The position numbers were made by a program, and so were the translations under genes. The notes under the pieces are model-generated. The model was not told the origin of the DNA and did no database searches. It worked only from the letters and a program-made list of their open reading frames with translations. Shown one piece after another: positions 1-12,680 of a stretch of DNA of 64,000 nt. Where the stretch lies: NCBI GenBank assembly GCA_965216875.1, contig OZ244207.1:5632001-5696000 (forward strand). Direction: 5' to 3'. Every line of letters begins with the position of its first letter. Positions within the stretch are counted from its first letter, which is position 1. This DNA is from Rubripirellula sp. (GTDB taxonomy: Bacteria > Planctomycetota > Planctomycetia > Pirellulales > Pirellulaceae).

Positions 1-1191
1 CGACGCAGAACAACGAACGACATCGCTGTGCCCGGTCCAAACCTGCCAGCACTTCAGTATCCTGGCGAGGCCCAGCCGATCCAGATTCCCCCGACCCCAC
101 CAGCGGTCCGCGAGCCGATCAATCCAAGCGACCCACTTGCCGCTAGGCTGCCAGCGCTAGCGGACGAAATCACAACGCCGATGGGAGAAGCGTTTGCGCA
201 GGGCTTTCCACAGGACATCGTCGCGGAGGCTGAGGCCACTGCACCTGAATCTCAAAGCCTGCTCGGTACTGCTGAAGTGACGGTTGACGTGCACACGAAC
301 ACAATCATTGTCGTCGCACCTCCAGATGTTCAGCGCGTCTACGCGACATTGATTGAGCGGCTCGATCAGCGCCGGCCACAAGTTTTGATCGAAGCTCAGA
401 TCGTGATCATTGACACGTCTGATGACTACACCCTTGGTGTCGAAGTCTCAGGTGGCGACCGTAGCGGCGTAAAGCGATTGTTCAGCTTTTCGAGCTACGG
501 CCTGAGTACGGTTGATCCGACGTCGGGGGCACTAAGCATCATTCCTGGTGTTGGATTCAACGGAACTTTGGTTGACCCTGACACTGCGGATGTGGTTGTC
601 AGAGCGCTAACGACTCATCGCCGAGCACGCGTGCTTTCAGCACCAAGAATTTTGGTAAACGACAACGCGGAAGGGCAATTGACGAGCGTCTTGGAAGTTC
701 CCTTCACAAGTGTCAATGCGTCACAAACGGTTGCAACCACGAGCTTTGCAGGTTTCGCGGAGGCGGGGACAACAATCACGGCGACGCCAACGATTAGTGA
801 AGACAACTATTTGCAGCTCGACTACACCGTGACGCTCAACTCGTTCACCGGTGTGGGATCTGACGGTGTGCCCCCTCCACGCCAAACCAATGAGGTTCGA
901 AGCCGGGTTACAGTTCCCGATGGCTATACCGTGATCGTTGGTGGCCTCACCTCAAAGAACGAATCGTACGAAATCGATTCGATCCCATTTCTTGAGCTGA
1001 TCCCTTTGATCAAGGATCTCAGCAGCCTACAACGCGACAATTGGCAGGAAACGTCATTGTTCGTTTTCCTCAAGCCGATCATCTTGCGTGAGGACAAGTT
1101 CAAAGACCTACGCTTCCTCTCAGATTCCAGCCTGCAAAAAGCCGAGCGCCCCGGCAATTTCCCTGCGAACGAACCACTTACGATCGAGTAA
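1..1191 (+). CDS. gspD: Type II secretion secretin (GspD/PulD-like), C-terminal part; 5' end outside window
   Basis: Frame open from base 1; secretin motifs 'LDQRRPQVLIEAQIV', 'VLSAPRILVNDN', 'VTVPDGYTVIVGGL', 'IPFLELIPLI', 'LFVFLKPIIL'. Confidence 0.85.
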   Translation, partial: RRRTTNDIAVPGPNLPALQYPGEAQPIQIPPTPPAVREPINPSDPLAARLPALADEITTPMGEAFAQGFPQDIVAEAEATAPESQSLLGTAEVTVDVHTNTIIVVAPPDVQRVYATLIERLDQRRPQVLIEAQIVIIDTSDDYTLGVEVSGGDRSGVKRLFSFSSYGLSTVDPTSGALSIIPGVGFNGTLVDPDTADVVVRALTTHRRARVLSAPRILVNDNAEGQLTSVLEVPFTSVNASQTVATTSFAGFAEAGTTITATPTISEDNYLQLDYTVTLNSFTGVGSDGVPPPRQTNEVRSRVTVPDGYTVIVGGLTSKNESYEIDSIPFLELIPLIKDLSSLQRDNWQETSLFVFLKPIILREDKFKDLRFLSDSSLQKAERPGNFPANEPLTIE

Positions 1192-1397: not shown

Positions 1398-2297
1398 ATG
1401 CAAGAAGTCAGTAGTGCCCTTGAGGTAGTCAAGAATCTGTGCAGCCATGCTGGTGATATTACGGCAACAACCCGGCTAGTTGTAGCGAGATGGAATGCCG
1501 GCGATCGCGAGGCGGGACTTACGCAACAGCTCACCGAGGCAGTGCTGCATGACATTAACAATCTCCGGATTGCAGCGGAGCATTTAGATGTGCTCGATTC
1601 CTTGTTGATAAAGGATGGAACGTCTTCTCCCATTGCTGACAAGCTATTCGCCTTGTCCCAAGGCTCAGAAAGAAAGACTGCTCGGTATCGCAACACTCCT
1701 GTCGAAACTTCGCTGGGGTTGCTCGCGCGCCAGGTGCGGGACTTTCTGTTTCGAATTGGAAGCAACGTTGATAGCGTTATCGGGGAGTATTTTATCGAGA
1801 CCAGTTTCTTCGCCGATCCAACGTACTGGCTACGGATCCGGAATCAACTTGAGGTAGAGCTTCGGCGGGCGGGCTGCAAACTTCACGGTCCACTTGCCAA
1901 CGCGTTAGATCTTGCGCTGGTTATACCGTCTGAACTAGCAGCTGATTCGTTGAGTGAGCTCTTTGACTTCATTGAGTCGACTGGGTCAGCCTCTGAACAA
2001 GACGTCCCTACTAAGAAACCGATGACGCCTGCAGAAATAAAAGGCAAGGCATATGCGCTGATTGCCAATGGTGAACGCTACTCTTCCTGTCGAGAACTCG
2101 CGAATGCCGTGGGATGCGCTCGTAGGGCAAAAGCCATCCAAGAAGTATGGCGACAGTGTGGCGAGCGAATAACCAATCCACGTGCAGTGGACCTCCATTG
2201 CAATATTCAAGACCCCTCAGACCAGCTTAACCAACTAATCGACGAACAGGCTTGCGACGACGCCTCTACGGGCAAGCCACAACGCCGCCGAGTTTGA
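1398..2297 (+). CDS. Hypothetical protein with probable C-terminal HTH (element regulator)
   Basis: 299 aa ORF, GGAGGA RBS; C-terminal 'YSSCRELANAVGCARRAKAI' is HTH-like; followed by a palindrome. Confidence 0.6.
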   Translation: MQEVSSALEVVKNLCSHAGDITATTRLVVARWNAGDREAGLTQQLTEAVLHDINNLRIAAEHLDVLDSLLIKDGTSSPIADKLFALSQGSERKTARYRNTPVETSLGLLARQVRDFLFRIGSNVDSVIGEYFIETSFFADPTYWLRIRNQLEVELRRAGCKLHGPLANALDLALVIPSELAADSLSELFDFIESTGSASEQDVPTKKPMTPAEIKGKAYALIANGERYSSCRELANAVGCARRAKAIQEVWRQCGERITNPRAVDLHCNIQDPSDQLNQLIDEQACDDASTGKPQRRRV

Positions 2298-2302
2298 GCA
2301 TC

Positions 2303-2341
2303 CTTGCTTAGTGGCGCGCCCGGGCACGCCCACTAAGCAAG
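2303..2341. promoter_or_regulatory. 39-bp inverted repeat (operator or hairpin)
   Basis: CTTGCTTAGTGG ... CCACTAAGCAAG perfect 12-bp arms around quasi-palindromic CGCGCCCGGGCACGC. Confidence 0.55.
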
Positions 2342-2443
2342 AATCTTATCCCGTGTTTTTCGGACGGCAGAGCATTTCGCTGGGCCGTGCGTGCCCATCT
2401 CGCCGGATTGTGAAGGCAGGAGTTATTCACAAGAGGCGATTCA

Positions 2444-2653
2444 ATGCAAACTAAGGTCCCGGTCCAGCTGCTGACCGCCCGTGTCATCGCGGAGCGGATC
2501 GGCGTGCCGATACATCGCGTCCGGCGAATTCTGGAAACTCGGCAAGACATCAAGCCTGCGGCAATGGCGGGCAGGACGCGGTTGTACAACGCAGCAGCGT
2601 TGGCTCGTGTGCGATACGAACTTTCCGTTATCGACGCGAGGCGGAGCAGATGA
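2444..2653 (+). CDS. Small winged-HTH protein (excisionase/AlpA/MerR-like)
   Basis: 'LLTARVIAERIGVPIHRVRRIL...GRTRLYNAAALARV'; GAGG RBS; first gene of a coupled operon. Confidence 0.7.
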   Translation: MQTKVPVQLLTARVIAERIGVPIHRVRRILETRQDIKPAAMAGRTRLYNAAALARVRYELSVIDARRSR

Positions 2654-2829
2654 GCGACAAGTTGACGAAACCACAAGCAGATGCGCTCGCAGTTCTGCTC
2701 CTTACATTAATGGCACCGGAACTGCCGAAGTCGAAGGAAGTGGATGACCCGGCACTTTCCCCGACACATTCAATTGCCTTACCGACCAGGTGCAACGCCA
2801 ATTCCAACCAGCATGGAGGTAACGCATGA
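2650..2829 (+). CDS. 59-aa hypothetical protein missing from the ORF track
   Basis: My translation MSDKLTKPQADALAVLLLTLMAPELPKSKEVDDPALSPTHSIALPTRCNANSNQHGGNA*; ATGA start/stop overlaps with both neighbours. Confidence 0.65.
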   Translation: MSDKLTKPQADALAVLLLTLMAPELPKSKEVDDPALSPTHSIALPTRCNANSNQHGGNA

Positions 2830-3638
2830 GAGGGTTTGCAAAACTCGAAAGATCGATTCTTGAGTCGTGTGTCGCTGACTCTGACGAGCTGCTAGGCCTT
2901 TACACCCGACTGCTACTCACGGCCAATTGGAAACCGCGGACCTTTAAAGGGATTCGAATCGAGCCAGGCCAGATGGTGCTATCCGACCGGTCACTGCGTG
3001 ATCGGCTTTATGGTGGCGCGGATGAGGCACCTTGCATCAATACGGTCAAGAAACGACTGGCCATGCTCGCATCGCTAGGTGTGATTAGAGTTGAGACCAT
3101 CAAACGACATCGGATTGTGTCGATCGCGTCAAGTATTGGCGCGGAGGGTGCGTCAAGCTTTGGCGCATGGCCCCCAGTCACGCCAGATTCTGACGCGATC
3201 GATGGCGCACAACTTGGTGCGAACTTTGGCGCAGAAAGAAGAAGAGAAAGAAAAGAGAAGAATGGAGAAGATACTTCCGTCAATGTCGAGCTGTCAGGCC
3301 GGTTCAAAGATGTCTTTGACGGTTGGAACGCTAGAGCTCAGGTAGTAGGCGATCCGTCACGAATGCCCTTGGTTCGCTCATTGAGCAAAGACCGACAGAC
3401 AAAGCTAAAGACGCGCCTAAGCGAGCAGACGTTCCGGGAGAACTGGCGACGTGCGATCGCCATGCTTCCGATACCAGCCAAGCGGGGATTCGATTGGTCA
3501 CCCAAATTTGATTGGCTCATCCAGAACGAGACCAACATTTTGAAGTTGGTCGAGGGCAACTATCACTCAGCAGACCCTCACGCTCGTGCTGGCGTCGACT
3601 TCGATCCGGAATACGGTGACTACGGGAAGGGTTTTTGA
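2826..3638 (+). CDS. Phage replication initiator (lambda O-like)
   Basis: N-terminal wHTH 'LLLTANWKP..IEPGQMVLSDRSL'; C-terminal 'WSPKFDWLIQNETNILKLVEGNY'; internal iterons; upstream of DnaC-like ATPase. Confidence 0.75.
   Translation: MRGFAKLERSILESCVADSDELLGLYTRLLLTANWKPRTFKGIRIEPGQMVLSDRSLRDRLYGGADEAPCINTVKKRLAMLASLGVIRVETIKRHRIVSIASSIGAEGASSFGAWPPVTPDSDAIDGAQLGANFGAERRRERKEKNGEDTSVNVELSGRFKDVFDGWNARAQVVGDPSRMPLVRSLSKDRQTKLKTRLSEQTFRENWRRAIAMLPIPAKRGFDWSPKFDWLIQNETNILKLVEGNYHSADPHARAGVDFDPEYGDYGKGF
3126..3271. repeat. Putative replication origin: iterons plus purine-rich tract inside the initiator gene
   Basis: TGRYGC at 3137, 3161, 3191, 3203, 3215, 3227 (last four 12 bp apart); GCGTCAAG-N2-TTGGCGC twice 24 bp apart; almost pure purine run 3234-3271. 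Confidence 0.55.
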
Positions 3639-4249
3639 TGATCACAGCTGCCGAAACCTGCCTTGACTATCTAGACCGGAAAGTTGGGGAACGGTACCGC
3701 AACTGCACGATTGACGGATTCGAACTCGTTCATCCTTCGGTCGAGCATGCCAAAGCACTCTGCCGGAACTACGTCACTAGCTTTCGGAGTCACTTCGCTG
3801 ACGGACGGGGCCTTGTCTTTATTGGCCCGAAGGGAACGGGAAAGGATCACCTAATGATTGCGGTCATGCGAGCAATTATTCGAGGCTACGACATTCAACA
3901 GCCAGGCCGCGTTCGCTATGAGGACGGAATGAAGTTCTATCGTCGATGCAGAGATACATTCAAATGCGACGTGCCAGAAGAAACCATTATCGAGCCGCTT
4001 TATTTCCCACACTTGCTCGGCCTTTCTGATCCCATTCCTCCGAGTGGTGAACTGTCCGAGTACGAGCAGAAAGTTCTGTTCGCACTTGTCGACCAAAGAT
4101 ACCGTCATTGCAGGCCAACCGCCGCAACCATCAACGTCCGCGAACGCGATGAGCTTGACCGCCGCATGGGAAGCCAAATCGCTGACCGCCTTTGCGATAG
4201 AGCAATTGTCGTGAAGTGCTTTTGGAAGTCCCACAGGAACGTACAGTGA
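3635..4249 (+). CDS. DnaC/IstB-like AAA+ helicase loader
   Basis: Walker A GPKGTGKDH; 'LFALVDQRY...PTAATIN'; 'MGSQIADRL...WKSHR'. Confidence 0.85.
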   Translation: MMITAAETCLDYLDRKVGERYRNCTIDGFELVHPSVEHAKALCRNYVTSFRSHFADGRGLVFIGPKGTGKDHLMIAVMRAIIRGYDIQQPGRVRYEDGMKFYRRCRDTFKCDVPEETIIEPLYFPHLLGLSDPIPPSGELSEYEQKVLFALVDQRYRHCRPTAATINVRERDELDRRMGSQIADRLCDRAIVVKCFWKSHRNVQ

Positions 4250-4356
4250 CTCCACTGCGGGTCCTTTCTGAGGGCCAATGTAAACGGTGTGCCACCCCCC
4301 TCGACGCAAACAATGACACAGTGCGTGCGTGTCCGCCAAACTGACAGGAGCCTAAC

Positions 4357-4578
4357 GTGCGAAAGATCAACACGGATGGATTGAAGATCGTTGTCGTCCC
4401 CAGGGCGAGATGCCCTGAGTGTGGAGGGCATGCCTTAAAGACCGTTCGATCCGTCAGATCTCAAGACATGTCCGCGACACGTTACACAGCTTGCAAGTCC
4501 TGCGATGCGAGGTTCATCGTGATCGTCGATCCGTCAATTGGTCCAGAATTTGGACGAATCGAGATGGACATTTCGTAG
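4357..4578 (+). CDS. Ogr/Delta-like C4 zinc-finger protein
   Basis: CPECG ... 'TRYTACKSCDARF'; 73 aa; AGGAG RBS. Confidence 0.6.
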   Translation: MRKINTDGLKIVVVPRARCPECGGHALKTVRSVRSQDMSATRYTACKSCDARFIVIVDPSIGPEFGRIEMDIS

Positions 4579-4611
4579 TATTCACTAACTTGCTTCACGG
4601 AGTGAATAGAC

Positions 4612-4824
4612 ATGCCAACTTTAGACGTTATCGCCATCGGCCGACTGTCCGGCGAATTGCAGACACCTGTGCAACGGTTACGAGAGATCGTGACTGAGTT
4701 ACGTATCGAACCAACTGCGATCATCAACAATATCGAACACTTCGATCGCATCGATGCGGAACGAATCGCCATGCACATTCGAAGCACCCATCCCCGTTCG
4801 GGTCCTTCCGAGACATTGGCGTAG
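4612..4824 (+). CDS. Small winged-HTH protein, paralog-like to 2444-2653
   Basis: 'VIAIGRLSGELQTPVQRLREIV..EP..IINNIEHFD' aligns by eye with the 2444 protein; GGAG RBS. Confidence 0.6.
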   Translation: MPTLDVIAIGRLSGELQTPVQRLREIVTELRIEPTAIINNIEHFDRIDAERIAMHIRSTHPRSGPSETLA

Positions 4825-5026
4825 CTCTCAGAGATTTACGCCCTCGACCGATCCAGACACAATCCGTCCGGCATGCCTGTTCATTTCGGCAGCGCGTCCT
4901 CCTGGAGGGGCCTACCCCTGTCGCGGGTTCCACTCCGAACACAAAACTCGCACGCAGGATTTTCCTGAGGGCACCACCACCACCACATTCACCCAGCCCC
5001 AGGATTTGGAAAACAAGGAAACGACC

Positions 5027-5734
5027 GTGCTCTACTTCATTGAAGGCATCAAAGCGACAAGCAAGGACGTGCTGGAGCAGCATGGTCTTGATCACTTGGT
5101 TGGTAATCAAGCGGGCGGCCGCGAATCGGGCACTGGCCCTGGTGGGAAACCTGGCTGTTTAGTCGTCGATCAATCCCGATTCAAGCGGATCCAGTTTTCT
5201 CCTGACCAGCAAACTTGGGAGCCACGGTTCGGTTATCCCGGCACTTGGGTTGGCATGTGGAACGACAGCCCACCTGGCCCGGAAGAATTGGCGAGTGAAA
5301 AGCAACTTGATGGCCCGGTCGTTCGGTTGCTCGATGGGAACCTCTGGCAGATTCCGCTGTTGCGGGAATGGTCTTTGTTTGAGGGCGATGTGGTCTATGA
5401 GTGCTGTCTGCCGAGGGTCTTTATGCAATGTCAAGAAACGGGGAGATTGAAACCTGGGGATGTTGTGCGGCAGTATCGGCAACTGTGGGACGACTCGGTC
5501 ACCGTTACTGAAGCCATGTTGGGTGGTGGACGCAGCGACAATGATCCTGAGTTCGATAGCCGGTTTTTGGATCAGTTCTTGGGCTCGCTCTTGGCCGCCA
5601 ACTATCAGGTTTCGCTAACCGAAATCAGCTTGCTTCAGCTCATCGATGAGGGTCTTTCTGGCGAAGTGATTCGAGCATCCATTGGCTGGCAAAGCGTTCT
5701 TGATTTGTCCGCTGAACTTCAATGCCAAAACTAA
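5027..5734 (+). CDS. Phage hypothetical protein in tail-assembly-chaperone position
   Basis: GTG start after AAGGAA (track ORF begins at 4754); directly upstream of the tape-measure-like gene; function inferred from position only. Confidence 0.5.
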   Translation: MLYFIEGIKATSKDVLEQHGLDHLVGNQAGGRESGTGPGGKPGCLVVDQSRFKRIQFSPDQQTWEPRFGYPGTWVGMWNDSPPGPEELASEKQLDGPVVRLLDGNLWQIPLLREWSLFEGDVVYECCLPRVFMQCQETGRLKPGDVVRQYRQLWDDSVTVTEAMLGGGRSDNDPEFDSRFLDQFLGSLLAANYQVSLTEISLLQLIDEGLSGEVIRASIGWQSVLDLSAELQCQN

Positions 5735-5747
5735 GGATGGTACAGCC

Positions 5748-7832
5748 GTGGCAACAACCGTCGTTGAAATGACTGGCGAAGAAAGGCGATTGATTCAGTC
5801 GCTCCAGAAGGTCATCGCAAAGGAAGCTGAACACGCGAACCAACTAGAACGCACCGGGCGGGCTGGCGGAAAGGCTGGCGATGGCATTGACCGAGGGATG
5901 AAGAGGGCCGAGAAGGCGTCCGTACTGTCGCTGAAAGGAATCCAGCGAGCCGGAACCGATTCATTTAGGAAGCTCAGGACCTCCGCTGCTAGTGACCTCG
6001 CATCTGTCGCAGGCGGGTTCACATCGCTTGAAGCAGGGCTGGGTAAGTTTGTTGAGCTTCAAAACGCGGCAATCGCAAAGAACAGAGAGTTGTTCTCTGG
6101 TCTGCAATCGACAGAAGGAGGTGATCGACGGTTGGTCCAGATCGCTGAGAATGCTCAAGACTTCAGGCAATTGCGTGGGCGGGCAGATGAAATAGCTGGC
6201 AAGTTTGGGATCGAACGTACTGACGCGCGCGGCCTAGTGTTCAGTGCTCGCTCAGAGAACTTTGAAGACACGCTTGAGTTCATCGCCAAGAATGCCCAAG
6301 TCATAGATACAACGGCCCAGAGCACGGTTGCGGGCCAACTGCCGCAGCTGTTCAAAGGCAGTGGACTAACGGGGACCCAGTTCATCAATGCTACGTTGGC
6401 TGCTGCAAAGGACAGCCGAGCCGACTTCGAAGCGATTGCAAGAGTTGTCCCAATCGCTGCGCAAGGTGGTTCAGTCGCAGGTGCAAAACCTGAAGAGATC
6501 CTTGCGGCAACGTCCGTGCTGCCATCAAGGACTACTTCACCCGAAGTCGCGGCCAACCTAATCAAAGCCTTTGCCACGAAAGTTGGGTTGGATACTGGGA
6601 CTACTGCCGAGGATCGCAAAGCGTTCGAAAAAAAAGAAGCGGACCGCCTGAGCTCGGCACAACTCAGGTTGCGAAGCCTAACCGAACGACGGGACGACCT
6701 GCAGGAAGATCTTGCGGACGCTCCACGAAGCCGCAGGGCGGATCTTGAGAAGGCTTTGGCAAGGGCGAACCGAGCGATTGACGAGTTTGATCGGTCGCAG
6801 CTCGACAAGAGATCCTTTGCGGCAAGAGAGTCACTGTCTGGCGTTGGCCTGCTTGGTGCTGTAAGAAAACTCGATTCACTGCCGGAAGCGCTTCAGCGTG
6901 ACTTCCTCGGTGAAAGCCAGGAGCTTAACCAGGGATTCATTCTGCTAAAGAAGAATCTTAATACGATCGAACAGCGGGCTGCAACAATCAGCGAGCAGTT
7001 TGGTCTTACCGGAACCGGTCGATCGATCACTGCAAAGCGGCGAGCGATCACATTAAGGAATCCGGAGCTCGCCACCCTTCTTGAAGAACGCAAAAGCCGA
7101 ATTGCTCTCGAGATCGAACGTGACGACCGGGCGTTACTTGAAGGATCCAGCCAAGCAAAAGCTAACCGAGCCCTGGCGACCGCCGAACGCGACGGCTCAT
7201 CCGCTCTTCGTATTGCTGCAGCGGAGTCGTTTGGCGAGACAGCGACGGGATTAGGCTTTTCTCGTGAGAATGCGATCACGCTGGTAGCTGGCAACGACCT
7301 TGGACAACTCGAGCGGGACTTGGCGTTCTCGTCACGCTCTAGCCCTGGCCAGAAGCTTGGTCCGCTCGTCAACGCGGTAAAAGAACTTCGGCGAGCTCGT
7401 GGCGTTGACCCAACGGCACTTGTCCCCCGCGATGCGGCCGCCGGCTACCTGCGAAACGTCACGGGTCGTGAAATCTTCGCCAACAACATCACTGATACCG
7501 AGAGGCTTGGACTCACAAACCAAATTGTCGCGCAGGCAAAGAAAACAACCGGTTTTGGCCGAAGTGCGACCATCGGAGTTCTCGATGCATTGGGGCCGCT
7601 TGGCAACTTGGCACTTGGATCAAAACAACTGGCTGTCAATGAGGGCCTGGACGCCGCAAAGGAGATCCGAGCAGGCCTAGAGGCACAGGCGGCTGCCACT
7701 CGTGAACAGACCGAAGTGTTGAGGCAAATGCAGACGGATTCACAGGCGACCGCTTCAGCGACGCAAGCAACGGCAGCGAACACGCAACCAAGCCAATCAT
7801 CATTTGGTGACGCACAAAGGGCAGGAAGATGA
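5748..7832 (+). CDS. Tape-measure-like protein
   Basis: GTG start after AAGGA; Ala/Gly-rich and helical; core 'AAAKDSRADFEAIARVVPIAAQGGSVAGAKPEEILAATSVL...AANLIKA' resembles the TP901-family tape measure core. Confidence 0.65.
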   Translation: MATTVVEMTGEERRLIQSLQKVIAKEAEHANQLERTGRAGGKAGDGIDRGMKRAEKASVLSLKGIQRAGTDSFRKLRTSAASDLASVAGGFTSLEAGLGKFVELQNAAIAKNRELFSGLQSTEGGDRRLVQIAENAQDFRQLRGRADEIAGKFGIERTDARGLVFSARSENFEDTLEFIAKNAQVIDTTAQSTVAGQLPQLFKGSGLTGTQFINATLAAAKDSRADFEAIARVVPIAAQGGSVAGAKPEEILAATSVLPSRTTSPEVAANLIKAFATKVGLDTGTTAEDRKAFEKKEADRLSSAQLRLRSLTERRDDLQEDLADAPRSRRADLEKALARANRAIDEFDRSQLDKRSFAARESLSGVGLLGAVRKLDSLPEALQRDFLGESQELNQGFILLKKNLNTIEQRAATISEQFGLTGTGRSITAKRRAITLRNPELATLLEERKSRIALEIERDDRALLEGSSQAKANRALATAERDGSSALRIAAAESFGETATGLGFSRENAITLVAGNDLGQLERDLAFSSRSSPGQKLGPLVNAVKELRRARGVDPTALVPRDAAAGYLRNVTGREIFANNITDTERLGLTNQIVAQAKKTTGFGRSATIGVLDALGPLGNLALGSKQLAVNEGLDAAKEIRAGLEAQAAATREQTEVLRQMQTDSQATASATQATAANTQPSQSSFGDAQRAGR

Positions 7833-8062
7833 AAATCGAGAACTTCAACGATTTCGCTACAGCGTTTGAAATCATGGGTGACAACTTTGCCGAATCAGCC
7901 GAGGGGTTTGAGACGATGCAGGCAAAACTTGCTGGGCTACCAGATGAGTGGAAGCCGTTGCTTGAACAAGTACGCGTCATGAAGATCACTTCCAGACTGC
8001 TGCGGACACAAGCGAACACAGCAGCGGCGATTGCTCAAGAGATCGCAGACGGTGTTGGATAG
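7829..8062 (+). CDS. Small helical hypothetical protein
   Basis: 77 aa; ATGA overlap with the tape-measure-like gene; AGGAAG RBS. Confidence 0.6.
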   Translation: MKIENFNDFATAFEIMGDNFAESAEGFETMQAKLAGLPDEWKPLLEQVRVMKITSRLLRTQANTAAAIAQEIADGVG

Positions 8063-8071
8063 CGGAGCTAA

Positions 8072-8517
8072 CGGTGGTCAATTCGGCCACCCATGGAGTC
8101 CATTTGGTGTGCAGCATGCTGCACACCGTCGAAGTGCCAAGGTGGACGATCCGCATTCGACGGCTGGTCAAATTAGCCACCCGCAAGGGCGTGTGAGTTA
8201 CACGCCCATAAGACTTGAAAACACCAGCAAACTGAAAGTCCAGGGTAGATGATTTAGCTACCCGCGATCGATCTGTCCAGAATTCTGGACAGTTCGGGTT
8301 GGTCGAATTAGCCACCCTGACCTTACATAAGAATTTGTGGAGGGTCGGCACGTATGACCTTACTCAAGAATTTGAGGAAGGTTCGGAATAGAGCTTGCGC
8401 AAGTGTTTGCGTAAGGCTGTGGTACAAATTATTGCACCACAGCCCGACCCTAAACTGTGCGCAATTGCGCACAGTTTCGCCGCCCGCACAGGGCTTCGTG
8501 TCAAATTCTTGAAACAC
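8072..8517. repeat. Array of ~11 short inverted repeats with AATT-like cores
   Basis: Includes perfect palindromes CTGTCCAGAATTCTGGACAG (8273-8292) and AAACTGTGCGCAATTGCGCACAGTTT (8452-8477), and four GGTRG-N9-CYACC-type copies. Confidence 0.8.
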
Positions 8518-8844
8518 AGCGCCTTGCAACCGAACAGACCGAGCCGAACTTGACGACGAGCTCCCGTGTCGTGACAATGCGAGAGCTGTCGTGAAGGACT
8601 AATAACCGACACGACTTGACCGCTGGATTCAAAACCTCCGGCGGTGACAAAGCCAACTACTACCATTCTGACGATTTAGAAATGACAACGCCGCACGTTT
8701 TGTGGACCACCGGAAGCAATGAGCCTGCGCAGGCAGGGGAGCAACCGACCCGACCCGGGGTAGTAGCCGGGTTATTAGCAGGACGTGCGGCGTTGTCGTG
8801 CGCTGGCGGAATCGATCCGTTGGCGGAAAGGTTGAACCAGACCC

Positions 8845-9324
8845 ATGAAGTCTCGTTCGAACGAACAAAAGCGTTTGGCAGTTGAGCGATCGGCCAAGGT
8901 AGCTTACGAGGGTCTTTTGACGGCCCGCGAGTTGTACGCTGGCGGCGACGCAAAGGCAGGTTTCTATCTTGCTCGGTCGTTGTGGCTCGTTGCCGTGATG
9001 GACTCAGCGACACGATTCTCACCTAACACGAAATCACGCACGAGTCGGTGCGGGCTGATGGCGTTGTTTCATGGCAAACGAATCGACCAAGAGACCTTCG
9101 AGTATTGCTCAGCAATCGATGTGAAGGTCACGGGAGGTTGGGCAGTAGCTACAGACACGCCTAAAATCGTCGAAGCCGCAACCGCGTTGCTTGAAGCGAC
9201 CGAATCCAACAGTTGCCGCAAACGTCGATTGGCAGCGATTGAGAAGGCCAACGCTAAACCCGGCCGGATCCGTCAGCTGGCAACCGCTGCTTGTGGTTTG
9301 TTTGCCTTCGGAGGTGCGTCTTGA
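8845..9324 (+). CDS. Hypothetical protein
   Basis: 159 aa; ends in GGAGG-containing 'GGAS' coupled to the next gene. Confidence 0.55.
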   Translation: MKSRSNEQKRLAVERSAKVAYEGLLTARELYAGGDAKAGFYLARSLWLVAVMDSATRFSPNTKSRTSRCGLMALFHGKRIDQETFEYCSAIDVKVTGGWAVATDTPKIVEAATALLEATESNSCRKRRLAAIEKANAKPGRIRQLATAACGLFAFGGAS

Positions 9325-9509
9325 AAAGCGACCTAGACAATCCCCGAGTGCGATTCCTCCCAACACCTGAAGAGATCAGGCAGCGTGCGAGTGAAGTCCG
9401 CTCGAATTGGTCCGCAAGGATCCGCGAGGAAAGACGCGTCAAGGCTTACGACTCACCTTGGAGCGTTCCGGCCTTCGTCCTTGAAGAGAACGAGCTACGC
9501 AGCCTGTAG
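9321..9509 (+). CDS. Small hypothetical protein
   Basis: TTG start overlapping the upstream stop, GGAGG RBS; 'LPTPEEIRQRASEVRSNWS' motif. Confidence 0.55.
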   Translation: MKSDLDNPRVRFLPTPEEIRQRASEVRSNWSARIREERRVKAYDSPWSVPAFVLEENELRSL

Positions 9510-9524
9510 CGACTGACAAACAGC

Positions 9525-9552
9525 AGACCGGGAATGGATGCCCGGTCTTTTT
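9525..9552 (+). terminator. Intrinsic terminator-like hairpin upstream of the integrase
   Basis: AGACCGGG-N8-CCCGGTCT followed by TTTT. Confidence 0.55.
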
Positions 9553-9594
9553 GACCGAACGGAAACCACCTCATCACATGGAAGACAGATTCAC

Positions 9595-11307
9595 ATGGTC
9601 ACTACAGCAGTTGGCTACATTCGAATGTCAACGGACGACCAAGAGGCATCACCAGAACAACAGCGGGAAGCAGTAGCACAGTTCGCGACTGACAACGGCT
9701 ACAAAATCATTCGCTGGTATCAAGACCTTGGAATCAGTGGCGACAAGACAGAAAAGCGAATCGACTTTCAAAAGATGATTGCAGCTGGTTCGACTGGCGA
9801 GTTTGATGCGATCCTTTGCTGGGACCAAGACCGTTTCGGGCGTTTCGACATGCTTGAGGCTGGCCGCTGGATCCACCCACTAAGGCAAGCTGGTGTCCAC
9901 TTGGCTACGGTCACCGATGGACCGATCGACTGGACACAGATGGCCGGCAGGTTGGTTTACTCGGTCAAACAGGAAGGCAAACACCAGTTCTTGCGTGACC
10001 TTTCAAAAAACGTTTCCCGCGGGATGGACAAGCTTGCCGCCGAGGGCCGATGGGTCACAGGTGTTCCGCCGATCGGTTACGTGGTCGACGAAGACAGGCG
10101 TCTTCAATTAGGACCACATGAAGACGTGGCAATCGTGAAAGACATCTTCCGGAAGTACTTGGCCGGTGATTCCACCCGACAGATCTCGCAGTGGCTCTCG
10201 GACCGTGGCATCCTTAGCCCGAAAGGCAAGAAGTGGACGGCAACAGGAATATCAAACGTGTTGAAAAACGAGCGATACCTTGGCTACCTCGTCTACAACC
10301 AACGAACAAGCTCGAAGTACAAGGATGCTTCCAACCCGCAGGGCAGAATGAAGACGAAGCCACGCGAAGAATGGACGATCGTGCCCAACACTCACCCTGC
10401 CCTGGTGACTCAAGAAGACTTCGACGCAGTTCAAGAACTATTCCGAACCAACACACGGAAAACGGCACCAAACAGCGGCCGTAAGTACGCCCTTTCCGGT
10501 CTGCTTCGATGCGGTTGCTGTGGGTTCACGATGATGGGCGACAAGTCCAACGGTGTCCCGTCCTACACTTGCTATTCGTATCGGGAACGCCCCAACTCAT
10601 GCGAGCGGTACAACGTCCGAGAGGACCAAGGCCTCAAGGCCATTCTGCGGGAGCTACGAACACAGTGGTTTGACAAGTACTTCACAGAATCACACATCGA
10701 GCAAATCAAGTCAGCGATGCGGGACATGCTCAGCGGTGAGCGTGCAGACCTGGGCATCGTGAAAGGCCATCTGGCGAAGGTGGAGGGCCAGATTGAGCAG
10801 GCGAAGCGACGATTGGTCGAAGTACCCGCCGACATGGTTCGGCACGTTTCAGAGCGTCTCAGGGAGCTTGAGGATCAGCGTGATTCACTGCTGGTCCAGC
10901 TGCAGCAATCAAACACGCCCGTTGAAGAGCAAGTCTTGGCCGTAGAGGAGCGCATCAACAGCGCGATCGAGTGGCTCAATTCACTCGAGCAAATCGCTGA
11001 AACAAAGTACGACAGCGATAAGGTCAATCGGATGCTACGACAGTTCATCGACCGCGTTGAGCTCCACTTCAAACGCAAGCCAATCGGAAAGCTTAAGAAG
11101 TACCACCGTTGTGAACTTGTTGGCGGTGTTGTCTACTTCCGGTTGAATGGCCTGCAGTCCGTCTTTAGCAAATCCATGAAGTTGCAAACAGGGGACCGGA
11201 GATTTTGGACATGTACTTTTCGATTTGCGGTGGCGTGCAATTGCAATGCCGACGCGGGTCGCTTCGGTAGCCACACGGACAAGGATTCGCCGCTGCGATC
11301 AACATGA
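9595..11307 (+). CDS. Large serine recombinase (integrase)
   Basis: Catalytic 'GYIRMST', 'DQDRFGR', recombinase domain 'PPIGY', zinc ribbon '[11 protein letters not shown]...YTC...C', coiled coil. Confidence 0.95.
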
Positions 11308-12340
11308 AGTCCGATGGAAACGTTGTGCTGCGAAGCGCTCGTGAGATCGTGACCACGCCGTCTTCGAGTGGTTGACGCATCACTTCCAACGTCTTGCGAT
11401 TGAACTCGGGCAGTTCGTCCAGAAACAGAATCCCGTTGTGCGCCTTGGAGATCTCGCCTGGTGACGGCGGACTTCCGCCGCCCACCAAACCCGCGTCGCT
11501 GATTGTGTGATGAGGGCTGCGAAAGGGTCGTCGCGCAAGGAGCGGCTGGCCCGATGGAAGTTGGCCAAGCGCGCTATAGATCCGCGTGGTCTCGATCGAT
11601 TCCCCCGCACCCAACTGCGGCAACACCGTTGGCATCCGCTTGGCCAACATCGTTTTTCCACTGCCGGGTGGACCAATCATGAGAAGATTGTGGCGACCAG
11701 CTGCGGCCAACGCCATCGCGCGCTTGGCCGACTCTTGACCTTTGACGTCACCAAAGTCGACATCATAGATGCTGTATCTTTCGAACAACTTGTCGAGACG
11801 ACTGGGCGCGGGGGTGAGATCGACTTCGCCGGCAAAAAACGCGACCGCTTGCGCAAGACTATCGACCGCGATCACATCGATCCCCTCGACCACGGCCGCT
11901 TCACTTGCGTTTTCGCGCGGCACCACAAGGCCCGTGATCCCTTCGTCCTTTGCCGCTTCCATCGCGATGGAAAGAGCCCCTTTGACGGGACGCGTGTAAC
12001 CTTCCAGTGCCAACTCACCGACCACGGCGTATTGATCGAGCCGATCACTTTGCAGTTGACCACTGCCGGCAAGGATGCCAAGCGCGACTGGCAAATCGAA
12101 CGAAGGAGCCTGTTTGGGTAGGTCACCCGGGGCAAGATTGATGACGACGCGATCGTGCGGACGTATGAAACCGCTGTTGACGATCGCCCGTTCAACGCGA
12201 AAGGTGCTCTCCTTCACTGCCGCGTCGGGAAGCCCAACGAGGATGGTCTTTGGCATCGCGGCTACCGAGAGGTCGACTTCGACGTCGACCGGCATCGCTT
12301 CGATGCCAAGCAGCGTAAAGGTTTTCAACCGCGCAAGCAT
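11165..12340 (-). pseudogene. comM: ComM/YifB Mg-chelatase-like ATPase, 5' part interrupted by the element
   Basis: '[10 protein letters not shown]', '[10 protein letters not shown]', GPPGSGKT, 'FRSPHH', 'LFLDELPEF', 'NPCPCG'; breaks after 'ISGPL' where LDRID is expected. Confidence 0.9.
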
Positions 12341-12680
12341 GGCCCCTGCCCCACAAGAGATTGATTCCAATCGAAAAGTCACCCAATTCGATTCTGCCCG
12401 AATCCTGCCACCATTGGGTCTTCTCAAATCGTGACGTCATTCGAGTCGTCAATCAACCCTATTAGATAGGGATCGCCATCAAAGAGCGGGCATGGAATTG
12501 CGGTCGGCATCTGCCAGCAAGAGATTTCGGCGTTATCCAACGCCGAATCGCAAACGCAAAATGCACCCGAGCAGGTAAAGCTTGCTCGAGTGCATTTGTC
12601 TCGTTCAGAAGGATGTCTTGGCGACAAGCCTGTCTTTTGGTCAAGTCATCGCCAGGATGTTTGGTCGGTCCGCATGGGGA

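Follow-up and report, generated by a model that had tools for sequence, protein, structure and literature searches.

PICIs measure about 10-15 kb, carry a primase-replicase module and usually a tyrosine integrase; P4-like satellites are known by Psu, Sid, the alpha primase and delta; and PLEs, which use a serine integrase, are defined by their Vibrio host and their helper phage ICP1. Tail rulers encoded by satellites have been demonstrated only recently, in the PLEs of Vibrio cholerae. According to PMC12987554 (Mathur, Boyd et al.), PLE1, PLE4 and PLE11 possess a tape measure protein and a tail assembly chaperone of their own and no tube gene, and these proteins give chimeric tails; PLE11 virions carry the PLE ruler, deletion of tmp lowers transduction by ~99.9%, and how the satellite ruler is chosen over that of the helper is stated to be unknown. 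The EPIPs of Mycolicibacterium (PMC12822802, a preprint) likewise combine a serine integrase, a helix-turn-helix (HTH) protein and a tape measure with the lack of tail tube and holin, and their tails differ in length from those of the helper. Here we analyse 64,000 nucleotides of Rubripirellula sp. (assembly GCA_965216875.1, contig OZ244207.1, positions 5,632,001 to 5,696,000 of the forward strand; hereafter the window), in which a sequence-only reading had seen, at positions 1398-11307, a capsid-less satellite that is integrated in comM and takes over helper tails by means of its own ruler, with the PLEs, since found to be a valid precedent, named as its parallel. This reading is partly supported. 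On balance we regard the element as a satellite of phages: upon excision and replication it would enter helper particles by packaging at a cos-like site, and its own predicted ruler would serve in the assembly of the helper's tails.

The likeness to the PLEs lies in two adjacent genes on the + strand, a tail assembly chaperone (5027..5734) and a tape measure (5748..7832). The chaperone belongs to a family of 2063 representatives that is without a Pfam or PHROG model and whose members lie between tail tube and tape measure in phage loci; the 312-aa gene upstream of a phage homolog has a tail-tube fold. In the phage copies, a slippery heptamer near the gene end opens a conserved -1 frame which stops just before the ruler. 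This is the arrangement of gpG-gpGT in lambda and TP901-1, where a gene between tube and tape measure likewise bears a -1 slippery heptamer and a conserved T frame (PMC4493119, PMC3296357) and where G binds the tape measure and T recruits the tube (PMC4493119). The 5027 family differs from these in an extra N-terminal domain of ~80 residues, and 5027 itself makes G only. When an AlphaFold model of 5027 (pLDDT 96) was searched against 48,161 chains, ranks 1-3 and 10 were taken by 5IR0, 3FGX, 3KLU and 2OB9, with Z scores of 5.0 (rmsd 3.6, 92 residues aligned), 3.6, 3.3 and 2.8, each of which is low, the point being the enrichment of chaperones. The top match 5IR0 is the chaperone of PLE1 (PMC12987554), and the other three are known chaperones as well (PMC9603447). 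Foldseek against PDB returned no match at E 0.001 and ESM Atlas no usable match. By position and by the conserved -1 frameshift of its family, and with the fold matches pointing the same way, 5027 is a tail assembly chaperone of the lambda G/GT type, which bears out the earlier suspicion drawn from its place in the gene order and provides this unnamed family of some 2000 members with a function.

This copy has lost T, a feature that had escaped the sequence-only reading: it is ~100 nt shorter than its phage relatives, possesses no slippery heptamer, scores 0.4 for T and stops 14 nt before the ruler, and no GT product is predicted. From their context we assigned 60 chaperone copies to phages (43), tube-less compact elements (10), orphan or remnant loci (4) or an unclear group (3), dropped a phage fragment (L089) and a duplicate (L047; G and L numbers are our labels for genomes and loci), and called T where the T profile reached at least 13 bits in the -1 frame. 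Of the 42 remaining copies in phage context, 41 score for T (26 of the 27 held out of training) and likewise 41 have an in-register heptamer, the T-negative L088 keeping its heptamer, with the caveats that kin are not independent and that some phage labels rest on 1.5-kb flanks. Among the tube-less copies T is absent in seven of ten, 5027 included, two of the seven being paralogs in one genome. For the pair in G762, dN/dS is 0.24 in the T-less chaperone and 0.12 in the ruler, i.e. both are under purifying selection. The retention of T in phages and its frequent loss in tube-less elements make a model of G-versus-GT selection testable. On a FastTree tree the satellite chaperones are scattered (polyphyletic); since deep support is weak, polyphyly is only indicated, and it would fit repeated capture and also repeated decay. 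A true remnant, an orphan chaperone with a split ruler, was found in G860.

That T has been lost repeatedly while G and ruler were kept could also be the mark of a decoy or defence device, in which the G-only chaperone and the ruler soak up the GT and tail-tip complex of the helper and unbalance G:GT, leaving tail-less phage. A fixed G:GT ratio is required for functional tails (PMC4493119, PMC3296357), and interference with tail assembly is a described defence (Rta). We consider this reading decidedly unlikely, because the ruler is full length with the C-terminal signature of its family, the cos-like sites and the replication module suggest packaging, and the PLE ruler is incorporated into particles (PMC12987554); decoy use and chimeric-tail use are, moreover, not mutually exclusive.

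The gene at 5748 encodes, by its matches and gene context, a predicted tape measure protein of 694 aa. Its open frame is of full length and keeps the N- and C-terminal signatures of the family, PF10145 matches at E 1.9e-7 (31.6 bits, just under the cut-off of 33.2), its homologs in phages precede distal-tail-position and hub genes, and its relatives match PHROG tape-measure models. Ruler homologs occur in four IMG/VR loci, three of which (L025-L027) show the order head genes, ~310-aa gene, 5027 homolog, ruler, 137-aa gene and large hub-position gene, while the fourth has another chaperone. A four-row ruler alignment run phylum-wide (401 genomes) recovered only the own genome and one weak match, the chaperone profile being far more sensitive.

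Apart from this pair, no structural gene was detected in the 44 open reading frames (ORFs) scanned: neither the 15 of the module, scanned with Pfam and PHROG, nor the 29 of the cargo to its left match a family of capsid, portal, terminase, tube or lysis proteins, and none of the 29 matches a tail PHROG. The earlier statement that such genes are lacking therefore also holds for the DNA left of the window up to the 3' half of comM, in which a capsid or terminase gene might have been hidden. The element thus has the general traits of a satellite, namely integration and replication genes of its own and no detectable head, motor, tube and lysis genes, and none of the terminase, portal, capsid, tube and lysis genes that a complete prophage would show. 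Since no head, packaging-motor or tube genes are detectable, it is likely carried in the particles of a helper virus.

The integrase leads to the closest relatives of the element. It is matched at E 1e-60 in 31 of 401 same-family genomes (own included), and seven of the nine closest non-self loci adjoin comM. The closest (G1080, 68%) is a comM element truncated by a contig start; it encodes a 639-aa tape measure, a primase-type protein and a homolog of the ORF at 9321, and it has a cos-like motif. The next (G737, 57%), complete and bounded by comM, spans ~16 kb, in which a primase, a zinc ribbon, a capsid-like protein, a protease and a tape measure of 835 aa are encoded. As neither ruler matches the 5748 profile, the ruler slot appears to have been filled independently, on a backbone of which the HTH gene at 2444, the zinc ribbon at 4357 and the ORFs at 8845 and 9321 have homologs in comM elements. 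Relatives of the integrase occupy comM in both orientations. Two comM elements of ~9-10 kb (L204:7348-11736 in G761 and L205:11771-16431 in G765) hold a primase-helicase and a DNA polymerase (phrog_17, Pol I-like matches) and no structural gene.

The same layout recurs elsewhere in related bacteria. With the chaperone profile, matches were obtained in 25 of 401 genomes of the same order and in 22 of 401 of the same family (own included), most of them prophages. Four tube-less elements with chaperone and ruler are bounded by tRNA direct repeats and measure 18.7, 16.4, 12.5 and 12.8 kb, the latter two with a head-protease match; further tube-less chaperone loci lie in a tRNA-Ala tandem array (G699) or are cut by contig ends (three loci), and in a last one (G802) neither att nor integrase was found. 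Stieleria magnilauensis possesses a 10.3-kb tRNA-Lys element and two more loci with a ruler and without a 5027-family chaperone, together with a near-complete prophage with tube, chaperone and ruler. Among 15 metagenome loci there are two circular contigs, of 7.7 and 9.6 kb, each of which encodes a ruler, an integrase and an excisionase-like HTH protein and lacks head genes and a 5027-family chaperone; the larger one has an initiator and a helicase in addition. Homologs are therefore not confined to complete prophages, since several att-bounded or circular tube-less elements carry tape measures, as do the two nearest integrase relatives in comM. The proposal of a planctomycete satellite class stands insofar as tube-less ruler elements recur; it fails as a homogeneous class, since the chaperones are polyphyletic, the integrases are of the tyrosine or the serine type, and some members appear capsid-forming (the G737 comM element and the G762 pair combine head protease or capsid-like genes with a ruler).

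Several of these loci deserve mention in their own right. L050 is a circular element of 9.5 kb whose positions 8080-9560 form a long repeat array. Its ruler is 54% identical to the one of the full phage L046 from the same assembly series, and 72% identical at the 5' end, which makes L050 and L046 a candidate satellite-helper pair. The satellite layout also occurs with a second type of tail: a 16.3-kb element in tandem at tRNA-Asp (L115:1700-15000, G762:C2) combines a zinc ribbon with a chaperone-position gene of 164 aa and a TP901-type tape measure of 574 aa. At 8.20 Mb of Stieleria magnilauensis (L035:12174-18699), small and large terminase and a tape measure occur with no head or tube gene seen and with a cos-like motif upstream of the small terminase. 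In phage L045, the head and tail modules are split and oppositely oriented, and no 5027-type chaperone stands beside the ruler. A Stieleria prophage (A) that was considered as a comM prophage was discarded: its adjacent comM-like gene is a distant paralog (43%), it ends at tRNA-Leu and it has a tyrosine integrase.

The gene set of the element could in principle have been left by a complete comM prophage that was stripped of terminase, head, tube, tail tip and lysis genes. Its order of replication genes, cos-like site, zinc ribbon, chaperone and ruler is indeed that of a phage, the nearest chaperones of known context sit in full prophages, the G860 locus shows that orphan chaperones with broken rulers exist, and in G1035 an integrase fragment adjoins a prophage. 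Such a history would, however, require at least three precise deletions that spared exactly chaperone and ruler. Furthermore, the seven comM-adjacent integrase relatives gave no tube, portal or terminase match in the DNA fetched (only 6 kb for G982), the HTH, zinc-ribbon, 159-aa and 62-aa genes are common to compact elements, and the pair of chaperone and ruler recurs in independent att-bounded elements. We therefore judge an origin as deletion remnant very unlikely.

That the element is integrated in comM, as had been proposed, is established by both of its ends. The 5' part of the host gene (comM, YifB; identified by Pfam and comM comparison) is interrupted at the right end (window 12427-11198, - strand; feature row 11165..12427), and the 3' part lies at genome positions 5599929-5599519, 32 kb left of window base 1. 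The right att junction (11169..11197, - strand) consists of a 23-nt arm at 11169-11191 and a central dinucleotide at 11196-11197; its partner arm at genome 5599934-5599956 pairs with it as a 23-nt inverted repeat with 20 of 23 positions matching, and the inner junction arms are equally spaced around one central dinucleotide, the pattern expected for the attP of a serine integrase. Within the 43 kb, no further att-like arm came closer than 7 mismatches, and removal of the element in silico yields an open comM frame of ~518 codons. Because the 3' half of comM lies 32 kb left of the window, the arms pair and no internal arm exists, the att-bounded unit measures 43.3 kb, composed of 33 kb of cargo and the 10-kb module; the element is hence not compact, as had been assumed before the cargo was noticed. 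Comparison with relatives agrees with comM as target: in 16 of 20 relatives searched the gene is whole (open frame of more than 500 aa) at the best match, three have no match, and the congener G001 has fragments only. Several of the latter (L017:8890-15430, G001:C8) stop at one common junction point and are regarded as scars of earlier insertions. Four contig sets of one sample span the att junction and show neither a joint nor a loose end there, and as contigs drop rare variants they are uninformative on excision either way; three further sequencing runs (short, near-identical pieces of low depth) were excluded.

The cargo contains genes for ankyrin, DUF4145, GspG/F/E, a PMT-type glycosyltransferase, a 2255-aa RHS protein, pseudopilins, TPR and a secretin. 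Its last gene is that of the GspD secretin (782 aa; Pfam Secretin/Secretin_N), the 3' end of which opens the window (1..1191, + strand), and from there the cargo runs left to attR (genome ~5599929). This secretin also matches M13 protein IV in PHROG, a consequence of the homology among secretins; the gene belongs to a type II secretion operon and was rejected as a phage gene. The pseudopilin-to-secretin operon is syntenic in the congener G002, 640 kb from an intact comM and with no phage genes around. The RHS gene is followed by a 202-aa gene (L014:3124-10483), possibly a toxin-immunity pair, beside the type II secretion genes.

This cargo raises the alternative of an immobile island, descended from the comM satellite backbone and domesticated in the course of cargo gain to 43 kb and T loss, with the host keeping the type II secretion/RHS genes. 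The unit is two to five times the size of its relatives, its chaperone is shortened by the ~100 nt mentioned above, its operon exists in a congener without phage genes, and no helper of the right tail type resides in the genome. An island at rest would, on the other hand, hardly be expected to have att arms matching in 20 of 23 positions, open and coupled frames for integrase, initiator, loader and ruler, and a comM that can be restored, and cargo and module share a low GC content (0.546 and 0.545, versus 0.563). We think this alternative unlikely.

Regarding packaging, two cos-like sites were confirmed in the module. The first (4259..4298, + strand) consists of a GGGTCCT heptamer with a GC-rich dyad and the second lies at 4800; these are two of only 15 matches of the strict motif in the genome (8.26 Mb). 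A relaxed motif occurs in other tube-less elements and also in L035, L096 and phage G471, where it precedes a gene in small-terminase position. A packaging role of the sites is inferred, and the motif is presumably comparable to lambda cosQ.

As to the helper, portal and lambda-type terminase matches were found genome-wide only at 2.69 Mb, in a resident lambda-like prophage of ~38 kb (G000:C1:2677000-2715500, L054-L056) with tyrosine integrase, terminase, portal, S49 protease, capsid and a TP901-type tape measure, the frames of which look open. It was rejected as tail helper, since its 164-aa tube-position gene, 170-aa chaperone-position gene and TP901-type ruler are unlike the partners of the 5027 family; it could be a head donor. 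The helper is likely to be a member of a long-tube siphophage lineage present as full prophages in G1080, G915, G934 and G1078. The genome also harbours a second serine-integrase element (L015:11672-16739, ~601.7-606.7 kb) with resolvase, a small gene and large terminase and with no head genes seen; it sits between an array of 14 tRNAs and three more tRNAs, and related integrases elsewhere are also located beside tRNA arrays.

Under the satellite reading, helper infection would lead the serine integrase and an HTH factor to excise the element and to restore comM, replication would proceed from its own O/DnaC-like module, and the helper phage would package it at the cos-like sites. The G-only chaperone would keep the satellite ruler soluble. 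As the satellite makes no T domain, the GT of the helper would have to bridge the satellite ruler to the helper tube, and the tail would be chimeric, consisting of the satellite's own G and of GT, tube and tip of the helper. A genome of 43 kb would fill a head of normal size and make capsid remodelling unnecessary, and the type II secretion/RHS genes would be carried along as cargo. A far broader proposal, to which we lend only tentative credence and which we hold to be doubtful, is that satellites hijacking helper tails have evolved repeatedly in planctomycetes and form a broad guild, whose members have a captured tape measure and a chaperone trimmed to G (or dropped) and force the GT of the helper to couple ruler and tube, and that the present copy moves a whole type II secretion/RHS island in a full-size helper head while switching comM off and on.

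A number of observations weigh against the satellite reading. T is retained in three of the ten tube-less elements and missing in two of the four orphan or remnant loci, and its loss can be explained as plain decay after loss of the tube. The chaperones nearest to 5027 with known context belong to complete head-and-tail prophages (G1080, G915, G1076, G934, G1078, L156), and the nine closest proteins (P0006-P0014) have no context. With only ~46% local identity to the closest ruler, no estimate of selection is possible for 5748. For initiator and loader, none of the fetched elements yielded a homolog, the size of 43 kb is far above the 7.7-18.7 kb of relatives, and in G1035 a full prophage tail module has as its neighbour a broken 130-aa piece of an integrase (77% identical). 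Finally, of 17 phage regions inspected whose structural module lies on the scanned strand, only three show the cos-like motif, it is absent from the resident prophage, and the genome-wide portal/terminase and prophage scans revealed no matching helper in this genome.

On the features tested, the element is not a member of the PLEs, PICIs, P4-like satellites, cf-PICIs or EPIPs. The PLEs live in Vibrio and exploit the lytic, contractile-tailed ICP1, whereas the relatives here belong to Planctomycetota and the helper is likely a temperate siphophage; O/DnaC-type replication, the comM site and the 33-kb cargo are further differences. No hub-like match arose in the Pfam and PHROG scans of the module ORFs, PLE profiles not having been searched. 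Here, in addition, the chaperone derives from a G/GT frameshift gene that has lost T, whereas the word "frameshift" does not occur in PMC12987554. EPIPs list small terminase, head-to-tail proteins, scaffold and major capsid protein (PMC12822802), none of which the element has, and it adds a chaperone; in the profile search it likewise lacks the own capsid or head genes by which cf-PICIs and EPIPs are marked. With PICIs and P4-like satellites it shares an integrase, small HTH regulators, replication of its own, cos-like sites, a candidate zinc-finger activator and cargo. Its 43.3 kb, O/DnaC module and serine integrase are not those of a PICI, and neither Psu, Sid, alpha primase nor small terminase was detected with Pfam and PHROG (Ogr_Delta reaching only E 0.025); the genes it brings are for the tail, not for the head.

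In the literature searched, subscription papers and supplements lying outside the search, nothing was found on planctomycete satellites or on T-less satellite chaperones. The mechanism as such is already known; new, as far as these searches go, are this lineage and the repeated loss of T. The elements described here represent many independent natural cases of satellite rulers in another phylum, and they point to satellite-borne transfer of secretion-system cargo in planctomycetes.

All ORFs named for the module were confirmed on the + strand between 1398 and 11307, with ATGA/TGA overlaps at 2650, 2826, 3635-3638, 7829 and 9321, as the earlier description of an intact, translationally coupled run had it. 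The first (1398..2297, 299 aa) has no notable Pfam or PHROG match and no homolog in the fetched loci, and a regulator role is a mere guess. It is followed by a 69-aa MerR/AlpA-like HTH protein (2444..2653; weak Pfam and PHROG HTH matches), putatively an excisionase or regulator, with homologs in the comM elements of G761 (E 1e-14) and G765 (E 6e-11), and by a translationally coupled 59-aa ORF (2650..2829) of no family and without homolog in the fetched loci. Profile matches uphold the replication genes, namely an O/DnaD-like initiator (2826..3638; phrog_2514 E 1.4e-12, phrog_345 E 1.9e-6) and a DnaC-like helicase loader (3635..4249; phrog_50 E 1.3e-26, PF01695). Within the initiator gene, short repeated motifs (~3126-3233) followed by a purine-rich tract (~3234-3272), both read by eye, may represent iterons and an origin.

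The 73-aa protein at 4357..4578 is a zinc ribbon, with homologs in the tube-less elements L090, L206 and L115; its former label as Ogr-like is weak, PF04606 matching at E 0.025 and under the cut-off, and it is at most a tentative candidate for an Ogr/delta-like late activator. A 70-aa HTH-like ORF (4612..4824; weak match to the G765 HTH protein, E 0.003) overlaps the second cos-like site with its 3' end. Behind the tape measure follows a coupled 77-aa ORF (7829..8062) of no family, with no PHROG match and no homolog in the fetched loci, and then a non-coding block (8072..8480) that holds two kinds of repeat, one of 21 nt present as three direct copies and one of 28 nt present twice, together with a long hairpin and a perfect palindrome of 26 nt (8452-8477). 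Both repeat patterns occur nowhere else in the genome. Part of the palindrome resembles the core of the att arm (9 of 10 letters) and is a candidate binding site of the integrase or a regulator.

Two small genes precede the integrase: a 159-aa ORF (8845..9324), matched at E 3.7e-6 in the same slot of the G737 comM element, and a 62-aa ORF (9321..9509) of a small family that recurs in tube-less elements (L029, L035, L050, L086/L098, L092, L119, L172, L201, L206). The large serine integrase itself (9538..11307, likely start 9595) comprises Resolvase, Recombinase and zinc-ribbon domains (phrog_95 E 6e-108), as expected from the earlier reading. Its last ~37 codons (window 11198-11307) are read from comM antisense DNA past the att site, and its C-terminus matches intact comM loci; since the frame crosses the att site, excision would alter the C-terminus of the enzyme.

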